DNA from: Candidatus Auribacterota bacterium
GTDB lineage: Bacteria > Auribacterota > JAFGBW01 > JAFGJP01
NCBI GenBank assembly: GCA_023144635.1
Contig: JAGLFH010000037.1
Location: 26,489 to 90,488 of the forward strand
DNA length: 64,000 nucleotides
Reading direction: 5' to 3'
The notes below the pieces were generated by a model. The model had not been told where the DNA came from. It searched no databases and saw only the letters and a list, made by a program, of their open reading frames with translations. This document shows positions 18,180-63,941 of the stretch, piece after piece (within the stretch, counting starts at the first letter, position 1; every line of letters starts with the position of its first letter). The position numbers and the translations under genes are program-made.

Positions 18180-19256
18180 TCAATTTTCATACTCAAGATA
18201 TCTGTAGGTATGCTCTTTTAACATATAAACATATTCATCTGAAATAACAGTATTTTTTTCGGACATTTTATCTATAGTCCATGCAAACTGAGACATAAAA
18301 GGAACAGCAAGATTATACTCATTTTTGAGCCACTTTTTGCTGCCGATGTTCATAACCTGCAAATCTTTTAGTTGATCATTTTTTAAAACCTGTGCAAGCT
18401 CCTTAACTGAAAGCCAGTTACTTTCTTTATCTTTTACTATCGCTCCATAATCAGTATCTATCATAAGCCATCTTTTTGAAGATGTTGATAACACTTCACT
18501 GACAACATGGCCCACTTCACCTTTTTCAGGTTTTAAATAAATCTCTTTTGTTTTATAGCCACTTTTTGACATCAAAAAGTTTAAGAATTTCGTTATATTA
18601 CCGCAATGTAAGCAAAGAGGCTGATCACTTGCAAAAAATTTTCTAAGCAAATTTTGAGGCACACATGAAGTTGCACCATGCTTTTTCATCATTTCAATTG
18701 AAGCATCGGATTTTGAATGAACAGAGTTTTTTGCAACAAAGGAAGCTATTGATAAAATTTCTTTTTCTACTTCCATTTCATCTTCAAGGATCAATATTTT
18801 AAAGTTACCCATTGTAGTCCTTAAATAGTAATCACCTTCTTCAGGAAAAGTTATTTGTTTTCTATCAAAAATGATCTTACTTATATCAGTACCTTTATAA
18901 TTTCCGGGTACAGGAAATGTCCCGACTATTTCAGGAGGACTCTTTTCAAGAAAAGGCTTAAAGACTTTATCTATATTTGTAGCTATTTCTGACCATTGTA
19001 CTTTTTTCTTTTTAAAGATAAGAAACAGATCATCCGTTACAGGCTCTACAGCTATTTTATCCCAACCGTACCTTACCCCCTTTGAAAATCCTTCCTTTTT
19101 CCCTTCAATAAATCCTGAAGACTTTCCTCGCAAAAAACCTGAATAATATGAAAATATCAGAATTGCGATAATAAATAAAAAGCTTAGAGCAATTGTTCTT
19201 TTTTTTATTTTATTAATTGTTCCCTCCACATTTACAGTGATAACAAGAAGATGCAT
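18180..19256 (-). CDS. hypothetical membrane-anchored protein (start uncertain)
   Basis: 358-aa ORF; the annotated ATG overlaps the upstream gene by 44 nt; an in-frame ATT at 19217 behind GGAGG would give MNKIKKRTIALSFLFIIAILIF. Confidence 0.5.
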   Translation of the reverse strand: MHLLVITVNVEGTINKIKKRTIALSFLFIIAILIFSYYSGFLRGKSSGFIEGKKEGFSKGVRYGWDKIAVEPVTDDLFLIFKKKKVQWSEIATNIDKVFKPFLEKSPPEIVGTFPVPGNYKGTDISKIIFDRKQITFPEEGDYYLRTTMGNFKILILEDEMEVEKEILSIASFVAKNSVHSKSDASIEMMKKHGATSCVPQNLLRKFFASDQPLCLHCGNITKFLNFLMSKSGYKTKEIYLKPEKGEVGHVVSEVLSTSSKRWLMIDTDYGAIVKDKESNWLSVKELAQVLKNDQLKDLQVMNIGSKKWLKNEYNLAVPFMSQFAWTIDKMSEKNTVISDEYVYMLKEHTYRYLEYEN

Positions 19257-19518
19257 AAAAAGCTCTTATTGGTATTCCGTAAAAATGTTTCCCGCATTTC
19301 GGGCATTTTGAACTTATGGAATATGTAGCTACAAATACACCTGACATTACAAATGGCATTATAAGTAGCGGATTAAATCTTATATTTTTAATTTCTGTAA
19401 CTACAGCTACAACTATTATTGCTAATAACATCAAGCCAAAGAAGCCAAGTCCTAAAGTTCTTTTTCTATTAAGTTTTTTTATCTCAAGAGAAAAATCTTT
19501 TTCTATTTCTTCTGTCAA
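19213..19518 (-). CDS. small membrane protein with C-terminal zinc-ribbon
   Basis: 101 aa; TM segment then CPKCGKHFYG...CYHCKCGG. Confidence 0.45.
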   Translation of the reverse strand: MTEEIEKDFSLEIKKLNRKRTLGLGFFGLMLLAIIVVAVVTEIKNIRFNPLLIMPFVMSGVFVATYSISSKCPKCGKHFYGIPIRAFYASSCYHCKCGGNN

Positions 19519-51971: not shown

Positions 51972-52697
51972 TTAGTAATTACCATGGAAATCTGCATCAT
52001 AATCAAATATCGGCTCCTTAGATAGATCAATTACTCTATGATAACCTGCTGTGTTTCTCTTTCTTGTAGTAGATCCGGCATCATAGCAACGTTTAATCCC
52101 CCATTTACCATGCCTTTTTTTGCCTAAATGATTATGACCGTAAAGCAGAGCATCAATGTTTCCATTTTCCATTAAAACATTTCCAAGTTCTTTTGAATCC
52201 TTAAGTTCATGGAAAGGAAGCGGATCAAAAGGATGGTGATGCATATATACAACTATATATTTACTATTCTTTACCTCTTTAAGTGTAAGTACTTTGCTAA
52301 GACGATCCAGCTGATTTGTTCCGATTTGACCTTCAGCAAAAAGCCTGTTATACCAATGGATCTCCTCTGCCATAGAATCAATACCTATAAATGCTATATT
52401 ATCTATAATATCGAGCTTTGGATATTGTACATTTGAATTTTCTAAGATCTTTTCTTTAAAAAGCGAAACAAATTTTTTAGAGCTTTTGGAAGCTGTTCCG
52501 TAATCATGATTTCCGGGAACTACAAGCACAGTAAAACCTGCTGATTCAAGTTTTCTTATATACATCCTTGCTTCAAGATAATTAGAAGGGTCTATTGCGT
52601 TTTCGACCAGATCACCAGTTATTACTATCACATAATCCTTAGCAGGTTCTTTTAAAAAAATAATACTTTCTAATATACACTTGAATCTTTCTCCCAT
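51972..52697 (-). CDS. metallophosphoesterase (calcineurin-like); true N-terminus probably 16 codons upstream at an ATA codon (52745)
   Basis: GDLVENA (motif II), GNHD (III), HHHP, GHNH present; motif I (IIHLSDIHVGF) lies in-frame upstream of the first ATG, with no ATG/GTG/TTG available and GGAGG 6 nt before an ATA. Confidence 0.8.
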   Translation of the reverse strand: MGERFKCILESIIFLKEPAKDYVIVITGDLVENAIDPSNYLEARMYIRKLESAGFTVLVVPGNHDYGTASKSSKKFVSLFKEKILENSNVQYPKLDIIDNIAFIGIDSMAEEIHWYNRLFAEGQIGTNQLDRLSKVLTLKEVKNSKYIVVYMHHHPFDPLPFHELKDSKELGNVLMENGNIDALLYGHNHLGKKRHGKWGIKRCYDAGSTTRKRNTAGYHRVIDLSKEPIFDYDADFHGNY

Positions 52698-52805
52698 ATT
52701 CTCAAAACCAACATGTATATCACTTAAATGTATTATCTTTTTTATTTCAGACCTCCATAAGGTTTTACTAAATTATATCATAAAAAATAGTAGGGCAGAT
52801 ACTTT

Positions 52806-55670: not shown

Positions 55671-56951
55671 CTATGACCTGTTTAACTTTTTTATCAATTT
55701 TCTCCAGATCCTAAATTCTTCAGACAACAAAACTATAGCACCAATTAAATAAAATGATGAAAGTATCCAGAAACTTCCCGGACCATTTCCTTTGTAAGAA
55801 GTCTTTTTTTCTGCCATTACAGGACGTGTCATGCAAAAAAGCATGGCTATTTCACCAAGGCATGATGAATCTGCAGCTTTACTTCCCATCAGGCTTGGGA
55901 TAAGACATCCAAAAGGTGTTGGCCATGAAAAAACTGACGCTTCAAGCATTATTGGAACACTTCTATCAAAACGCCCCATTGTACGTGCTGCACCTACTCC
56001 AAATGCCGATGCAACTGTTCCATAACCAAAAAGAACAGGCCCTGAATCTACATCCTCATATAAACCATTATGTTTAATACTGGCCTCACGATAGCCAGCA
56101 AAAAACCGATCTTCCTGCCAGAAATATTTGTCATGCATCTTAAACCACTTATCAGCCGAGATCATATCAAGTTCTGGTACAAACATAAGTATGCCTGAGT
56201 TACCGCACCCTCTAGCAATGCCAAGAGGACGCGCAGTCTTTTCATCTACTATAAAACCTGGGAGACCTTCATTTGTTAGTGAATATTTCTTTAGGACATC
56301 TATTAATTTACTTTTTAAAGCCGAATGGTCTGTTCCTAATAATTTATCTGCTCTAATAATAGATGCAACAGCCCAAACAACATCATTCGGATAGCATTCA
56401 CCCGGATAATCATCAAGCAAATGAGACGGTGCGTTTAAAAGTTCACGACCAAGAGACGTTGTCTGATCATAAAGCATTTTCCGGTAACGCTTATTACCCG
56501 TTACTTTTTCATAGCTTGATAATCCCATTATTAAAAGCATTCTATAAAAAAGATTTTTTTTAGTTAAATATGAGGATCCCCATTTTTCTTTTACCCAATT
56601 TCCTGTTTTAGGATCAGTGATGACATCTGCTGCAATATCTGCTGTTTTTTGTATTAAAAGAGTTATTTCTTTTATCTGACAAGAATCCTTATCTTTTATA
56701 TGGCTTTGTATTTCTTCTGCAGTTAAAAGATAAAAAACAGATCCGAATATAGGCCATTCTGTTCCTGCCACATCTTCAGAATCAACAGATGAAGCAAATC
56801 CTGTTTCCATATATTTTTTTGCCCATTTTTGATAACGATGCGATGTATTTTTAAACCATGGCAAAGTTATTTTTGGAAACTCACCATTCCTGACATTTTT
56901 ATCAAAATATATTTTAAAAGATATTATTGCAGGATATAGAAGCAAAAACAC
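55671..56951 (-). CDS. hypothetical membrane-anchored protein (start uncertain; possible ATT start at 57044)
   Basis: 426-aa ORF from GTG without SD; the frame stays open upstream to the GH17 stop, with AAGGAG 7 nt before an in-frame ATT that would give MKNIFRNLLKQVGVFKLYSQIIFTFFIIFVAV (classic n-region plus TM). Confidence 0.5.
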   Translation of the reverse strand: MFLLLYPAIISFKIYFDKNVRNGEFPKITLPWFKNTSHRYQKWAKKYMETGFASSVDSEDVAGTEWPIFGSVFYLLTAEEIQSHIKDKDSCQIKEITLLIQKTADIAADVITDPKTGNWVKEKWGSSYLTKKNLFYRMLLIMGLSSYEKVTGNKRYRKMLYDQTTSLGRELLNAPSHLLDDYPGECYPNDVVWAVASIIRADKLLGTDHSALKSKLIDVLKKYSLTNEGLPGFIVDEKTARPLGIARGCGNSGILMFVPELDMISADKWFKMHDKYFWQEDRFFAGYREASIKHNGLYEDVDSGPVLFGYGTVASAFGVGAARTMGRFDRSVPIMLEASVFSWPTPFGCLIPSLMGSKAADSSCLGEIAMLFCMTRPVMAEKKTSYKGNGPGSFWILSSFYLIGAIVLLSEEFRIWRKLIKKLNRS

Positions 56952-57047
56952 AGCTACAAAAATTATGAAAAAAGTAAATATGATTTGAGAATATAATTTA
57001 AAAACACCAACTTGTTTTAAAAGGTTTCGAAATATGTTTTTAATTTT

Positions 57048-58091
57048 TTATCTCCTTCCTCGAATCTTTTGATCTTGATTAATGGAAATTATCGGCATTA
57101 TCTCAGGAAAACTATCCGTTTTATCTTTAAGAGTATCTATATAATGCTTCTTCGTGCCATCTGCAAAATATATCCCCCAGTGAGGGCCTACTCGATTTGG
57201 TTCTTTTACTTTATATTCTTCATCAAAAGCAGAAAAAAAGAAGAAATCTATTTTTTCTTTTTTTGCTAATTCTAAAAAACCTTCTAAAAACTTTTTTTGA
57301 TTTTCTATACTTGCTACAGAAGCACCATTTGCATCACCATCACTCGGCCATCCCGTTTCACTGATGATAATTTTTTTAAACTTATACTTGTTTTTGATTT
57401 CCATGAATTTATTAAACGTGTGGTCAATTGCTTTATCAATATCTATTTCTTCCCAATATGGATGAATGTTTAAAAAGATAAAATCTACAGCATGTACAAG
57501 ATCAGGATTATCTCTCCAAATACTCCACGGCTCAGACGTTGTTACAGGACAATCAACCTGCTGCTTAATTCTCTTTATATGTTCTATTACAACTCCCTTC
57601 GCATAACCTTCGGGCCACCCTTTACCAAATCTGAATATACCCTCATTACCAACAACAATAAATGGTATGTTGTTATAAGTATTTGCAATGCGTACAAGGT
57701 TTTCAATTTGCTCATGGTTATTTTTTTCATTATGAGTAAGCCATGCACCTGTAACGACTTCAATGCCAGCATCTGCAGCACATTTTAAAATCTCTTCATG
57801 TCCATGATCTACAGAATAGATCCTTATTATATCTGCAACATGTTTAAGAATCTCCATGTCTTCACAAAGCTGCAAGGAAGAGGGAAAGACTCCCTTGGAA
57901 GGATCCTGACCTTTTCTAAAAGGACCATAATCAATACCAATAATCCTTTTTTCATTATCAGATGCAAAAGAAAAGTTACTATTTGTTAAAAAAAGACCGG
58001 TTGCTAAAATAAAAAAGAAAATAAGGCCGGTCTTTATGCCTTTTAACTTTGAAAAAGACAACTTATTGTTTTTATATATGATAAAATCCAT
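57048..58091 (-). CDS. glycoside hydrolase family 17-like (beta-1,3-glucanase / glucanosyltransferase)
   Basis: 347 aa, signal peptide; IVVGNEG and IIISETGWPSDGD are hallmark GH17 catalytic-Glu motifs. Confidence 0.75.
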   Translation of the reverse strand: MDFIIYKNNKLSFSKLKGIKTGLIFFFILATGLFLTNSNFSFASDNEKRIIGIDYGPFRKGQDPSKGVFPSSLQLCEDMEILKHVADIIRIYSVDHGHEEILKCAADAGIEVVTGAWLTHNEKNNHEQIENLVRIANTYNNIPFIVVGNEGIFRFGKGWPEGYAKGVVIEHIKRIKQQVDCPVTTSEPWSIWRDNPDLVHAVDFIFLNIHPYWEEIDIDKAIDHTFNKFMEIKNKYKFKKIIISETGWPSDGDANGASVASIENQKKFLEGFLELAKKEKIDFFFFSAFDEEYKVKEPNRVGPHWGIYFADGTKKHYIDTLKDKTDSFPEIMPIISINQDQKIRGRR

Positions 58092-58262
58092 TAATTTCCT
58101 CCGGATAATATAATTAAACTATTTTTGTATAATTTATAAATTTTTTTTCCTCTTGGCGAGAAATATTTTACCATTAAAATAAAATAGCTGTTAATAAAAT
58201 AACATATATTGATAAAATACTACAATCAAGGCAGTTACAATACAACTTAAGGCCGGTTGCAT

Positions 58263-58313: not shown

Positions 58314-58667
58314 ATGCCAAAAGTAAGCCTTTCAAAAGAGATAACAGATAATATAGTATGGCCTTTAAAATTACGTTCATACCTGCAAGGCATGGAAGAT
58401 ATTCCTGAAAGTAATATACTCTCAGAAAAATGCTGTTGTTATTTAGGGAAATGGCTTTCAAAAGAAGGTTTAACACACTTTGGGGATATTCAAGAGGTAA
58501 AGGAACTTGAAAAGATACATCTAGAGTTTCACGAATCTCTCAGCAGACTTGTCCATATGAAAAACGAGGGAACAATCTCACTTGCAAAGCAAGAACTTAA
58601 GATAATTGACCCTATAAGCAAAAGAATCATCCACTTGCTTACTACGGTAGAAAGAAAGATCTACTGA
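58314..58667 (+). CDS. hypothetical protein (117 aa)
   Basis: ORF preceded by a consensus-like TTGACT-17-TATAAT promoter and GGAG; no recognisable domain. Confidence 0.4.
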   Translation: MPKVSLSKEITDNIVWPLKLRSYLQGMEDIPESNILSEKCCCYLGKWLSKEGLTHFGDIQEVKELEKIHLEFHESLSRLVHMKNEGTISLAKQELKIIDPISKRIIHLLTTVERKIY

Positions 58668-58812: not shown

Positions 58813-59928
58813 CTATTTAAATATCAACATAGTCGCAGTTTGATTAATATGGCCTATAAACTCTTCCCCATAAGTACTGAACCCTATTGTAGGGATATCT
58901 GTAAAAAGTTCCCCATAGGCACCAGTAAGATCTTTCTGTTCCAGCTCAAGAGTCCTTAAAATACAGTTAAAATTTATAATACCGCTTATGTTTCCTAATT
59001 CATTTTTTTTATTATCTACAGCTTCTTTTGTATCTTTAATAATATCTGTTGCTTCAAGCAAAGCAAGTTCCATTCCCTCACCAACAGCACAATAGAAAAC
59101 CATACTATTTTCTTTTATCTGCTGAGGACTACGCACAAATATATCATCACCAACAAGAAGGCCGACAGGATTATGCATAAATTTATCACTTACTTTATCA
59201 ACTGTTGTCCCAAGAACTTCAGAATAAACCTCTGCTGCAGGCTTTTCGTTAAACTCAAGTATCTCACGGCTTGCTTCATTTACTTTTGTTGCTTTAAGTA
59301 TTATATCTTTCATGGGGCAAAAACTTTGAGTTTTAATATAATCAAAACCATTGCTTGGTTTTAACAAGACAAGTACTGCTGAATTTGGATATGATTTTCC
59401 ATTTGCATAGACAAATGTTTTTTCAAACTTACAGTCATCGCCTGCAGAACCACCTATAAACATTATGTTTGTACGAACGCCTATTTTATCCATTACCTTT
59501 TCTTCTACTACGCTAAGTCCGTCTATAAGAATAATTCCAACGTATTCCTTGGGCGAAAGATCACTCATCTTTGAGCCCAATTTATTTTCAAAAGAATTAA
59601 AAGCATCTTCTACACTTTTCTCTGCATCTTCGCTGATATTCTCAAGAACCTCGATTTTAACATCACTTATAACTTCTTTATCAAGAGACATTGCAACAAT
59701 ACTGTTTTTTAGCATTTTACCGGATACTATTTCCCCGGCAGTAGAACATCCAAACATATCGGTGTCAGAAAAACTATTTTTCATCTCTTTACTTAAAAGT
59801 TCACCTTCAAATGAAGATGAAGCAAAATACACGATAAGCTTAGGATCAACATTTGAAAAAGTATTTTTGATATCATTTACGGCTTCAGTAACAGACTGCT
59901 TATTAGAATAAGCTGTAATAATACCCAT
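58813..59928 (-). CDS. FIST-domain sensory protein
   Basis: 371 aa; N-terminal LIVYFASSSF...FGCSTAGEI and C-terminal GFSTYGEEFIGHINQTATMLIF resemble FIST_N / FIST_C; AGGAGG SD. Confidence 0.55.
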   Translation of the reverse strand: MGIITAYSNKQSVTEAVNDIKNTFSNVDPKLIVYFASSSFEGELLSKEMKNSFSDTDMFGCSTAGEIVSGKMLKNSIVAMSLDKEVISDVKIEVLENISEDAEKSVEDAFNSFENKLGSKMSDLSPKEYVGIILIDGLSVVEEKVMDKIGVRTNIMFIGGSAGDDCKFEKTFVYANGKSYPNSAVLVLLKPSNGFDYIKTQSFCPMKDIILKATKVNEASREILEFNEKPAAEVYSEVLGTTVDKVSDKFMHNPVGLLVGDDIFVRSPQQIKENSMVFYCAVGEGMELALLEATDIIKDTKEAVDNKKNELGNISGIINFNCILRTLELEQKDLTGAYGELFTDIPTIGFSTYGEEFIGHINQTATMLIFK

Positions 59929-61871: not shown

Positions 61872-62303
61872 CTAGATATTATCGATTAAGGTAAATAATT
61901 CGTATTCTTCTTTTTCTATTAGTCCTGAAAGGCACTTAAAAAATATTTTACTTTCTTTTAAAAAAGAGCTGATATCTTTTTTTATAGCATCAAGATTTTT
62001 CCATCTATTCCTATAATTATTAAACATCTCTCTCATGTTTTCCATTTCATTGTTCAATTTTTTTGCTGCTGATTGTACATCTACATTTTCATGCCCAAGA
62101 GCATCAGAATATATTGTTTTATCTTCTATAATAATATGTGCTGTTATCCTTCCTATTAAAACTAAAACTGCGTTGCTGTTTATAAAAATATCTTTATTAA
62201 ATTCTTCTTCCCTTAATAAAGGTTTTATTTTTGTCATATGAGATAAAATATCGGAATGCTGTTTTCTGAAGATCTCTGTCCTTCTCATGTTACACCTTCC
62301 CAA
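61872..62303 (-). CDS. hypothetical protein (possibly hemerythrin-like)
   Basis: 143 aa; spaced His/Glu residues (QHSDIL, AHIIIED, EKEEYE) suggest a hemerythrin-like bundle; weak. Confidence 0.35.
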   Translation of the reverse strand: MGRCNMRRTEIFRKQHSDILSHMTKIKPLLREEEFNKDIFINSNAVLVLIGRITAHIIIEDKTIYSDALGHENVDVQSAAKKLNNEMENMREMFNNYRNRWKNLDAIKKDISSFLKESKIFFKCLSGLIEKEEYELFTLIDNI

Positions 62304-62528: not shown

Positions 62529-63941
62529 TTATACTTTTCTATAAAAAAATCTGCATAACTTTTGCATTAAAAAACTATTCATTTTTTTCATCATCCACAT
62601 TTCCGCAACGCGTTTGCTCAAAAAACCCATAGTAGGAAATGAATGTGCTAAAAATAAAATACTATGTAATCTAATCTTTTTTTGAATTATAAGGGCCCAT
62701 TCATTTATCATTTCTCCTGAACCATCACCAATAATGCTTACGCCAAAAACTTTACCAAAAGAATTTGTGAATACCTTAACAAAACCAACGCCGACATTTT
62801 CCGCAATTGCAGCACCATAATCCTCATATTTTGCAATATGTGTCTCATAGTTAATTCCTTTTCCCTTAATCTCTTCTTCTGTCATTCCAACAGATGAAAC
62901 TTGAGGTTCTGTAAAAACTGTCCATGGAATAACATAATTTTTATATTGGAACAATGCAAAAGGACTTACAGCATTCATAATTGCAAACATGCCTTGATGC
63001 ATTGCAGCGTGAGAAAGCATGACACCACCATTACAATCTCCCACAGCATAAATATGTTTGACGGATGTTCTGTATTTTGCATCAACCTCTATGGCACGCT
63101 TATTGTATTTTACACCTGCATTGTTAAGTTTTAATGCATCAAGATCAACTTTCCTTCCTGCAGCCAGCAGCATTTTCTCAGATTTAAGACAAATGCCATC
63201 CTCTGTGTACAGACATATTTCGTTACCCTCTTTTTTTACGTTTATTATTTTTTTTGAATTATAAACTTCAATACCCTCTTTTTTAAAAACATCTTCGAGT
63301 AAATCGCCTGCTTCTTTGTCACCAAGAGGAATAAGAAAATCATCCATATGTACAATGATGCACTTAGTACCAAGCCTGGTGAACGCCTGAGCCATTTCAC
63401 AACCGATGGCACCACCACCAATTATTGTCATACTTTTAGGGATTTCTGTTAAATCGAATATATTTTTATTAGTAAGAATATCTATATTTGAAAGGCCGTC
63501 AATCGGAGGAACCATAGGTTCAGTGCCCGTTGCAATAAATATCCTTTGGGCAGTAATAGATCTCTCGCCAACCTTAATTGTATGTGAATCTACAAAACTT
63601 GCGGATCCCTCACCCATAATAAGATCCACTTTTTTAAACATCTTCAATGTTTTTTTGTTGGAAATATAGTCTAAATAATCAGCTATTTTTGAGAAAGGAG
63701 ATTTGATGTTTGGTATTTCTCCATTCATCAAGTCCATTTCTTTGAGCTTTGATGATGAGTGTCTGAATTTAGAAATTCTAAGCAGAGATTTGCTGGGTAT
63801 ACACCCTACATTCATACATTCTCCACCAATTTTATCTTTTTCAATTGCACAGACTTTCAGGCCCATTTCCGTCCCCATTATAGAGACAGCCATTCCTGCA
63901 GGACCTAGCCCGATACAAATTAAATCAAAGTCATATTTCAT
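62529..63941 (-). CDS. FAD-dependent pyridine nucleotide-disulfide oxidoreductase (dihydrolipoyl dehydrogenase family)
   Basis: 470 aa; FAD motif ICIGLGPAG, redox-active disulfide GGECMNVGCIPSK, NAD motif IIGGGAIGCE; AAGGAG SD. Confidence 0.8.
   Translation of the reverse strand: MKYDFDLICIGLGPAGMAVSIMGTEMGLKVCAIEKDKIGGECMNVGCIPSKSLLRISKFRHSSSKLKEMDLMNGEIPNIKSPFSKIADYLDYISNKKTLKMFKKVDLIMGEGSASFVDSHTIKVGERSITAQRIFIATGTEPMVPPIDGLSNIDILTNKNIFDLTEIPKSMTIIGGGAIGCEMAQAFTRLGTKCIIVHMDDFLIPLGDKEAGDLLEDVFKKEGIEVYNSKKIINVKKEGNEICLYTEDGICLKSEKMLLAAGRKVDLDALKLNNAGVKYNKRAIEVDAKYRTSVKHIYAVGDCNGGVMLSHAAMHQGMFAIMNAVSPFALFQYKNYVIPWTVFTEPQVSSVGMTEEEIKGKGINYETHIAKYEDYGAAIAENVGVGFVKVFTNSFGKVFGVSIIGDGSGEMINEWALIIQKKIRLHSILFLAHSFPTMGFLSKRVAEMWMMKKMNSFLMQKLCRFFYRKV

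Follow-up and report, generated by a model that had tools for sequence, protein, structure and literature searches.

Probable AUU and AUA start codons behind strong SD sequences in an uncultured Auribacterota bacterium

A membrane-protein gene behind a GH17-family gene

The window analysed here is a stretch of 64,000 nucleotides from contig JAGLFH010000037.1, derived from an uncultured member of Candidatus Aureabacteria/Auribacterota with a GC content of 34%. On its minus strand a GH17-family gene (57048–58091; Pfam PF00332) with its own start (GGAGG, 6 nt, ATG) is followed by a gene for a membrane-anchored (alpha/alpha)6-barrel protein, which is revised here to 55671–57044 (457 codons plus stop). 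A promoter scan located a promoter-like site upstream of the GH17 gene at 58194–58165, a terminator scan found no convincing terminator between the two genes, and the GH17 gene is the probable partner of the barrel-protein gene in translational coupling. Read directly on the minus strand, the sequence presents AAGGAG at 57057–57052, within the last GH17 codons, then the 7-nt spacer ATAAAAA and an in-frame ATT at 57044–57042, which stands 3 nt past the GH17 stop codon at 57050–57048 (TAA AAA ATT). This ATT is in frame both with the GH17 gene and with GTG 56951, which lies 31 codons downstream, and translation from it gives (I/M)KNIFRNLLKQVGVFKLYSQIIFTFFIIFVAV.

Public annotations place the start of the barrel-protein gene either at GTG 56951 (426 aa, ENA/Logan) or at TTG 56945 (424 aa, NCBI MCK5707709.1) and so omit the segment 56952–57044, which codes for a positively charged N-terminus and for the N-terminal TM helix as far as its midpoint. 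No ATG, GTG or TTG was present in the 32 codons scanned between the GH17 TAA and GTG 56951, and no SD was found upstream of GTG 56951 or TTG 56945; AAGGAG at 57057–57052 is the sole strong SD in the 5′ region of this open frame. The coordinates and translations that the initial annotation had given for this gene, and for the gene at 18180–19256 considered below, were all confirmed on the sequence. As a separate observation, a gene for a FIST/FIST_C protein (58813–59928, minus strand) just upstream of the GH17 gene gives a below-cut-off match to the nitric-oxide sensor NosP, and is adjoined in divergent orientation by a gene for a CZB (chemoreceptor zinc-binding) domain protein (58314–58667, plus strand).

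The barrel protein belongs to a large family, of which at least 1,581 members passed E ≤ 0.001 in the set of scored candidates. The typical length is 440–460 aa, and no model in Pfam or NCBIfam matches the family; its named members come from MAGs of Kiritimatiellae, Verrucomicrobia, Hydrogenedentes and Opitutaceae. Identity to the nearest homologue outside this organism is 51–57%. A comparison of N-termini with homologues, as the initial annotation had proposed, speaks for the earlier start. A hydrophobic N-terminal 19-mer is found in 113 of 118 homologues, and the annotated GTG and TTG starts would halve the membrane helix that these proteins have in common. When the invariant TEWP motif is taken as an anchor for N-terminal length, it falls at residue 95 counted from ATT 57044, against homologue modes of 86 and 95 (24/118 each), and at residue 64 counted from GTG 56951, a length as short as which is seen in just 6/118. 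All 28 homologues from other organisms in the alignment span the region encoded by 56952–57044, and eight of them have their Met in the column of ATT 57044. Rather than being an untranslated leader, the segment 56952–57044 makes up the opening 31 codons of a conserved gene for a membrane protein.

In the AlphaFold model derived from this alignment, which has a mean pLDDT of 90.4, an (alpha/alpha)6 barrel is flanked by one helix at the N-terminus and one at the C-terminus. The N-terminal helix is continuous over residues 14–46, with block pLDDT values of 86–95, and GTG 56951 corresponds to residue 32, so that initiation there would bisect it; the suspicion that this GTG lies in the middle of the hydrophobic segment and has no SD was correct on both counts. 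The nearest solved fold is that of linalool dehydratase-isomerase (Foldseek E of about 1e-8, target-normalised TM score 0.66–0.69, 18% identity), with GH76 mannanases, N-acyl-glucosamine 2-epimerases and related barrels as more distant matches far behind.

For the N-terminal helix to be complete, initiation has to fall within about 12 codons of the beginning of the open frame, where just two near-cognate codons are present: ATT 57044 at a distance of 7 nt from the SD and ATA 57035 at 16 nt. A fixed-register start-site PWM, trained on 28 SD-supported canonical starts of the same contig, scores ATT 57044 at −0.2 bits, among the top 6% of all 12,928 ATH triplets, as against −21 bits for GTG 56951 and −14 bits for TTG 56945. 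Comparison with homologues thus gives good support to the view that this protein would need an N-terminus that only a non-canonical codon could supply, although by itself it would leave the exact codon unfixed, since N-terminal lengths vary about the two modes. Together with the lack of any upstream canonical codon and the SD placed 7 nt before ATT 57044, the homologue N-termini lend good support to the AUU start that had been proposed for this gene.

Two further near-cognate candidates

A second case lies 4 kb away in a metallophosphoesterase gene on the minus strand, where a strong SD, GGAGG(T) at 52752–52756, is followed after 6 nt by ATA 52745–52743, giving a revised gene of 257 codons (51972–52745) preceded by an intergenic gap of 60 nt. 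The 257-aa product has the length of many of its closest homologues and matches PF00149 over profile positions 2–189 (2.1e-17), whereas from the annotated ATG 52697 the Pfam Metallophos profile is covered only from position 24. The annotated start drops KKIIHLSDIHVGFEN, including the catalytic DxH motif, which precedes the first ATG: the motifs SDIH, GDL, GNHD, HHHP and GHNH are all present in the protein that starts at the ATA, while motif I is absent from the one that starts at the ATG. The opening sequence MKKIIHxSDxH is shared by 96 of about 119 metallophosphoesterase homologues.

At the DNA level, a single-protein scan of genome contigs gave no match, and an alignment-based scan gave 80 orthologous loci in GTDB genomes from many phyla, among which the genome of the window itself does not figure. 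The motif was found in 75 of these loci, and in 71 of the 75 the codon aligned with ATA 52745 is canonical (ATG in 50, GTG in 14, TTG in 7), and a stop in the same frame often precedes it by a few codons. On this comparison AUA 52745 as the start of the metallophosphoesterase can be regarded as essentially proven, as the initial annotation had supposed, and since nearly all orthologues have ATG, GTG or TTG there, the ATA appears clearly to derive from a canonical start. Among the few orthologues that depart from this start position is that of a Victivallaceae MAG (L024; JAKIUY010000003.1, at about position 1500), which has CAA there and an apparent start four codons upstream (MPTRQKKIIH). The SD of the window gene is itself overlapped by an out-of-frame mini-ORF, ATG GAG GTC TGA (52747–52758, minus strand), which ends 1 nt before the AUA. 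A +1 frameshift from this mini-ORF into the phosphoesterase frame was considered and rejected: the shift from GUC to UCU would allow no re-pairing, and the orthologues start at the ATA position.

The third candidate concerns the gene annotated at 18180–19256 on the minus strand, which follows a gene for a 101-aa membrane zinc-ribbon protein (19213–19518, minus strand). Within the variable C-terminal tail codons of this upstream gene lies GGAGG (19223–19227), followed after 5 nt by a candidate AUU start (19215–19217) that shares 1 nt with the upstream TAA at 19215–19213 (ATTAA). Here a canonical start is available: the annotated in-frame ATG 19256, 13 codons upstream of ATT 19217, which overlaps the upstream ORF by 44 nt; overlaps of 17–26 nt between genes are found elsewhere in the window. 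The PWM, which discriminates among the start candidates of the barrel-protein and metallophosphoesterase genes, fails to do so in this gene, with ATG 19256 (+1.0 bits) and ATT 19217 (−0.9 bits) scored as equally good. Local mRNA folding is −3.4 kcal/mol at ATT 19217 as compared with −11.6 at ATG 19256.

Only two homologues of this third gene were found, both distant, in which the hydrophobic segment is preceded by 3 and 8 residues; ATG 19256 would add an extension of 20 residues. In one of the homologues, P0122, a TAA in the same frame immediately before the start fixes the N-terminus, and the opening MKKG aligns with I17-K-K-R of the window protein, which places its Met at ATA 19208, three codons past ATT 19217. 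These N-termini would fit ATT 19217 or ATA 19208 better than ATG 19256. The ATG may moreover be fortuitous, because it is formed by conserved Tyr-Ala codons of the 101-aa gene, whose conserved C-terminus contains it in another frame. In the 101-aa protein a predicted membrane segment precedes the zinc ribbon of the C-terminus, and the gene has a perfect SD before its own start (AAGGAGGT, 5 nt, TTG); its 11 homologues keep C72, P73, C75, C92 and C95 invariant (CPxC...CxxC), and no Pfam family for it was found. Of what had been claimed for this locus, the arrangement of GGAGG, 5 nt and ATT and the removal of the 44-nt overlap stand, and the choice of AUU becomes plausible only, given the equal score of ATG 19256. 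The odds that this gene uses an ATT or ATA start are about even.

Initiation at AUU and AUA and its alternatives

The caution in the initial annotation that an ATT or ATA close to an SD is not rare by chance proved justified. An ATH triplet in any frame is found 5–7 nt downstream of 23% of the GGAGG/AGGAG pentamers in this DNA, and the chance of ATH at one fixed position after such a pentamer is 8.3%, so that the juxtaposition of SD and ATH alone is weak evidence; it is the comparison with homologues that takes the barrel-protein and metallophosphoesterase genes beyond chance. The DNA of the start regions is identical in 7 (barrel-protein gene), 5 (metallophosphoesterase) and 1 (third gene) other assemblies from NCBI, ENA and Logan, representing several BioSamples, and an assembly or sequencing error was rejected on this ground. 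Identity to the window is 99.9% or higher in every other assembly of the region, which therefore represents the same population, and the next homologues, at 51–66% identity, have canonical starts. Reassignment of AUA to Met was likewise rejected: ATA ATA in KKIIH of the metallophosphoesterase aligns with a nearly invariant Ile-Ile, and the standard code therefore applies. A tRNA scan found no tRNA genes in the window. Elsewhere in the region, gene calls on the assembly from sample ERZ23498442 divide the gene for a 470-aa pyridine-nucleotide disulfide oxidoreductase (window 62529–63941; L002 3012–4423 versus L003 3011–4423) into pieces of 231 and 214 aa. This implies that the sample has a nonsense or frameshift variant, or else that its assembly has an indel.

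We put at about three in four the probability that translation of the barrel-protein gene begins at AUU 57044 by SD-positioned initiation and that the same mechanism serves the metallophosphoesterase and perhaps the third gene. We infer that AAGGAG, 7 nt upstream, would position the 30S subunit on this AUU rather than on another codon, that initiator fMet-tRNA would pair with it despite the third-position mismatch and provide fMet as the first residue, that output would probably lie below the level of AUG, and that ribosomes ending GH17 would help to feed the weak start by translational coupling. The metallophosphoesterase would be read in the same way (GGAGG, 6 nt, AUA 52745), as possibly would the gene at 18180–19217 (GGAGG, 5 nt, AUU 19217). 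Spacing between SD and near-cognate codon is within about 5–9 nt at all three sites, which have A-rich second and third codons and local folding of −3.4 to −5.5 kcal/mol, as compared with a mean of −4.65 at true starts. All three also lie 0–3 nt from an upstream stop codon, which for the metallophosphoesterase is that of the 3-codon mini-ORF, and may be fed by terminating ribosomes; tightly coupled junctions make up about one-fifth of the gene junctions in the window.

Were the annotations right, GTG 56951 (as called by Prodigal-type programs) or TTG 56945 (as called by NCBI) would be the start of the barrel-protein gene and the 93 nt upstream an open untranslated spacer. These are indeed the first canonical codons of the frame, and the mRNA near them is as unstructured as at true starts; yet neither has an SD, both have very poor start-site scores, their product would begin in the middle of a TM helix present in nearly all homologues, and the 31 codons upstream align with homologues over their full length, all of which makes this reading very unlikely. 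More has to be said about loss of the start codon, in which AT-biased mutation would have turned an ancestral ATG into ATT (barrel-protein gene) or ATA (metallophosphoesterase) and left genes that are silent or decaying pseudogenes. The low GC content of the genome is in keeping with this, as is the derived nature of the ATA to which the canonical codons of the phosphoesterase orthologues point. Near-cognate codons are moreover inefficient in E. coli, where AUU and AUA reporters gave about 1–2% of AUG output (10.1101/063800), so that the genes could be poorly expressed or decaying. Behind extended SDs in S. aureus, however, the AUU and AUA of cvfC1, ccpN and citZ gave about 10% of AUG output in reporters in poor medium (PMC13009471). 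The frames here are intact over 457 and 257 codons with every invariant family residue kept, strong SDs are retained at optimal distance, and the same sequence recurs in several assemblies from different samples; two to three independent recent losses within 64 kb, each with a perfect SD kept, would be improbable, and we regard start-codon loss as unlikely.

Use of another near-cognate codon, ATA 57035 in the barrel-protein gene or ATA 19208 in the third gene, would be compatible with the TM helix of the former, which ATA 57035 still precedes, and with the alignment of ATA 19208 to the fixed N-terminal Met of P0122. The distances from the SD (16 and 14 nt respectively) are, however, outside the usual working range, and the PWM gives these codons −7.8 and −8.5 bits as against −0.2 and −0.9 for the corresponding ATT codons, which renders their use highly improbable. 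Alternatively, the GH17 gene could read on into the barrel-protein gene, by readthrough or as a recently split fusion, and thereby supply its N-terminus. The two genes share a frame, with only TAA AAA between the last GH17 sense codon and the ATT, but a shared frame has a chance of one in three, and a TAA stop with A as the next base terminates efficiently. A fused protein would also contain a second membrane anchor midway along its sequence. No fusion to GH17 occurs among the 120 best homologues of the barrel protein, whose lengths are about 420–500 aa save for two longer ones that carry PF10882, and GH17 is absent beside the homologues in the three genomic contexts examined; readthrough or fusion was rejected on these grounds and retains hardly any credibility.

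Known systems and local frequency

The window sites belong to the known SD-led near-cognate initiation of the infC, pcnB and ccpN type, which is normally very rare. SD-driven AUU initiation is established for infC and pcnB of E. coli (bioRxiv 10.1101/063800), with which the barrel-protein gene shares a chromosomal location, an AUU as the only workable start, use of the initiator tRNA and an upstream SD; a weak codon that limits expression is a further point of likeness. In E. coli infC, in contrast, a widely conserved AUU has its role in the autoregulation of IF3, whereas the window genes encode a membrane (alpha/alpha)6-barrel protein and a phosphoesterase, the AUA of the latter being derived from a canonical start. 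The sites of S. aureus, infC (AUA), cvfC1 (AUU), ccpN (AUA) and citZ (AUA), are similar in that they belong to a low-GC bacterium, closely follow a strong or extended SD (extended in the three described in detail), were missed by automatic annotation and were recognised from their initiation context (PMC13009471). They differ in having been shown by Ribo-RET, three of them also by luciferase reporters, whereas the window cases were recognised by comparison.

Further likeness is found in coupled operon junctions, with the upstream stop 3 nt before the AUU of the barrel-protein gene, an overlap of 1 nt with the AUU of the third gene and an SD embedded in the end of the upstream gene, although classical junctions of this kind use ATG or GTG (ATGA, TAATG) and the metallophosphoesterase follows its gap of 60 nt. 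As in mitochondria and Mycoplasma-type genomes, the DNA is AT-rich and AUA and AUU starts may be commoner than in model bacteria; unlike many mitochondria, in which AUA is Met in elongation, ATA here aligns with Ile and initiation is SD-dependent.

The frequency of such starts was examined over 78 kb, comprising the window and 14 kb of flanks, in which 80 ORFs with a minimum of 90 codons passed a non-overlap filter, a number of them probably spurious. A recognisable SD (≥4 nt) at a canonical start was seen in about 35 of these ORFs and in none of the other 45; as SDs accompany only part of the genes, it is conspicuous that all three ATH sites have strong ones. Within the 78 kb only these three cases present a strong SD leading to an ATH with no canonical codon on the same SD, and no further genes without a canonical start were found beyond them. 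Weaker AAGGA-led ATH sites at 62273 and 71549 lie downstream of canonical starts and were set aside as looking like chance. There are thus two firm cases and one possible among about 60–80 ORFs, or about 3% for the firm ones in a small sample of 78 kb. The genomes of E. coli and S. aureus contain a few thousand genes each. Confirmed non-canonical starts of the AUU type number two in E. coli (bioRxiv 10.1101/063800), and S. aureus has four AUU/AUA start sites in the whole genome (PMC13009471), as against two to three within 78 kb here. If the background rate were 0.15%, the probability of at least two such cases among 60 genes would be about 0.004.

The suggestion that this organism uses AUU and AUA starts more often than usual fits this local count and can be taken as a credible hint from a small sample of 78 kb. 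Extending it to the Auribacterota lineage, with AUU/AUA starts in a few per cent of genes and at more than 20 times the rate of E. coli or S. aureus, is a tentative step that we consider possible though rather doubtful. On such a lineage-wide view AT-biased mutation would erode ATG starts, while strong SDs, coupling or relaxed proofreading by IF3 and initiator tRNA would keep the genes with eroded starts working, and standard gene callers would systematically truncate or lose part of the proteome. If the frequency of about 3% holds genome-wide, this candidate phylum would offer a natural instance of relaxed start-codon choice in an SD-using bacterium and would bear on the trade-off among IF3 proofreading, SD strength and AT mutation pressure; if it fails to hold, the genes described here would be further examples of a known rare mechanism.

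For the window itself, two and possibly three proteins appear to be mis-annotated publicly, one without half of its membrane anchor and one without its catalytic metal-binding motif, because Prodigal-type callers and PGAP called only ATG, GTG and TTG here. The N-terminal peptides expected from the candidate starts would be fMet/Met-KNIFR..., MKKIIHLSDIHVGFENMGER and MNKIKK..., as against MHLLVITVNVEGTINK.
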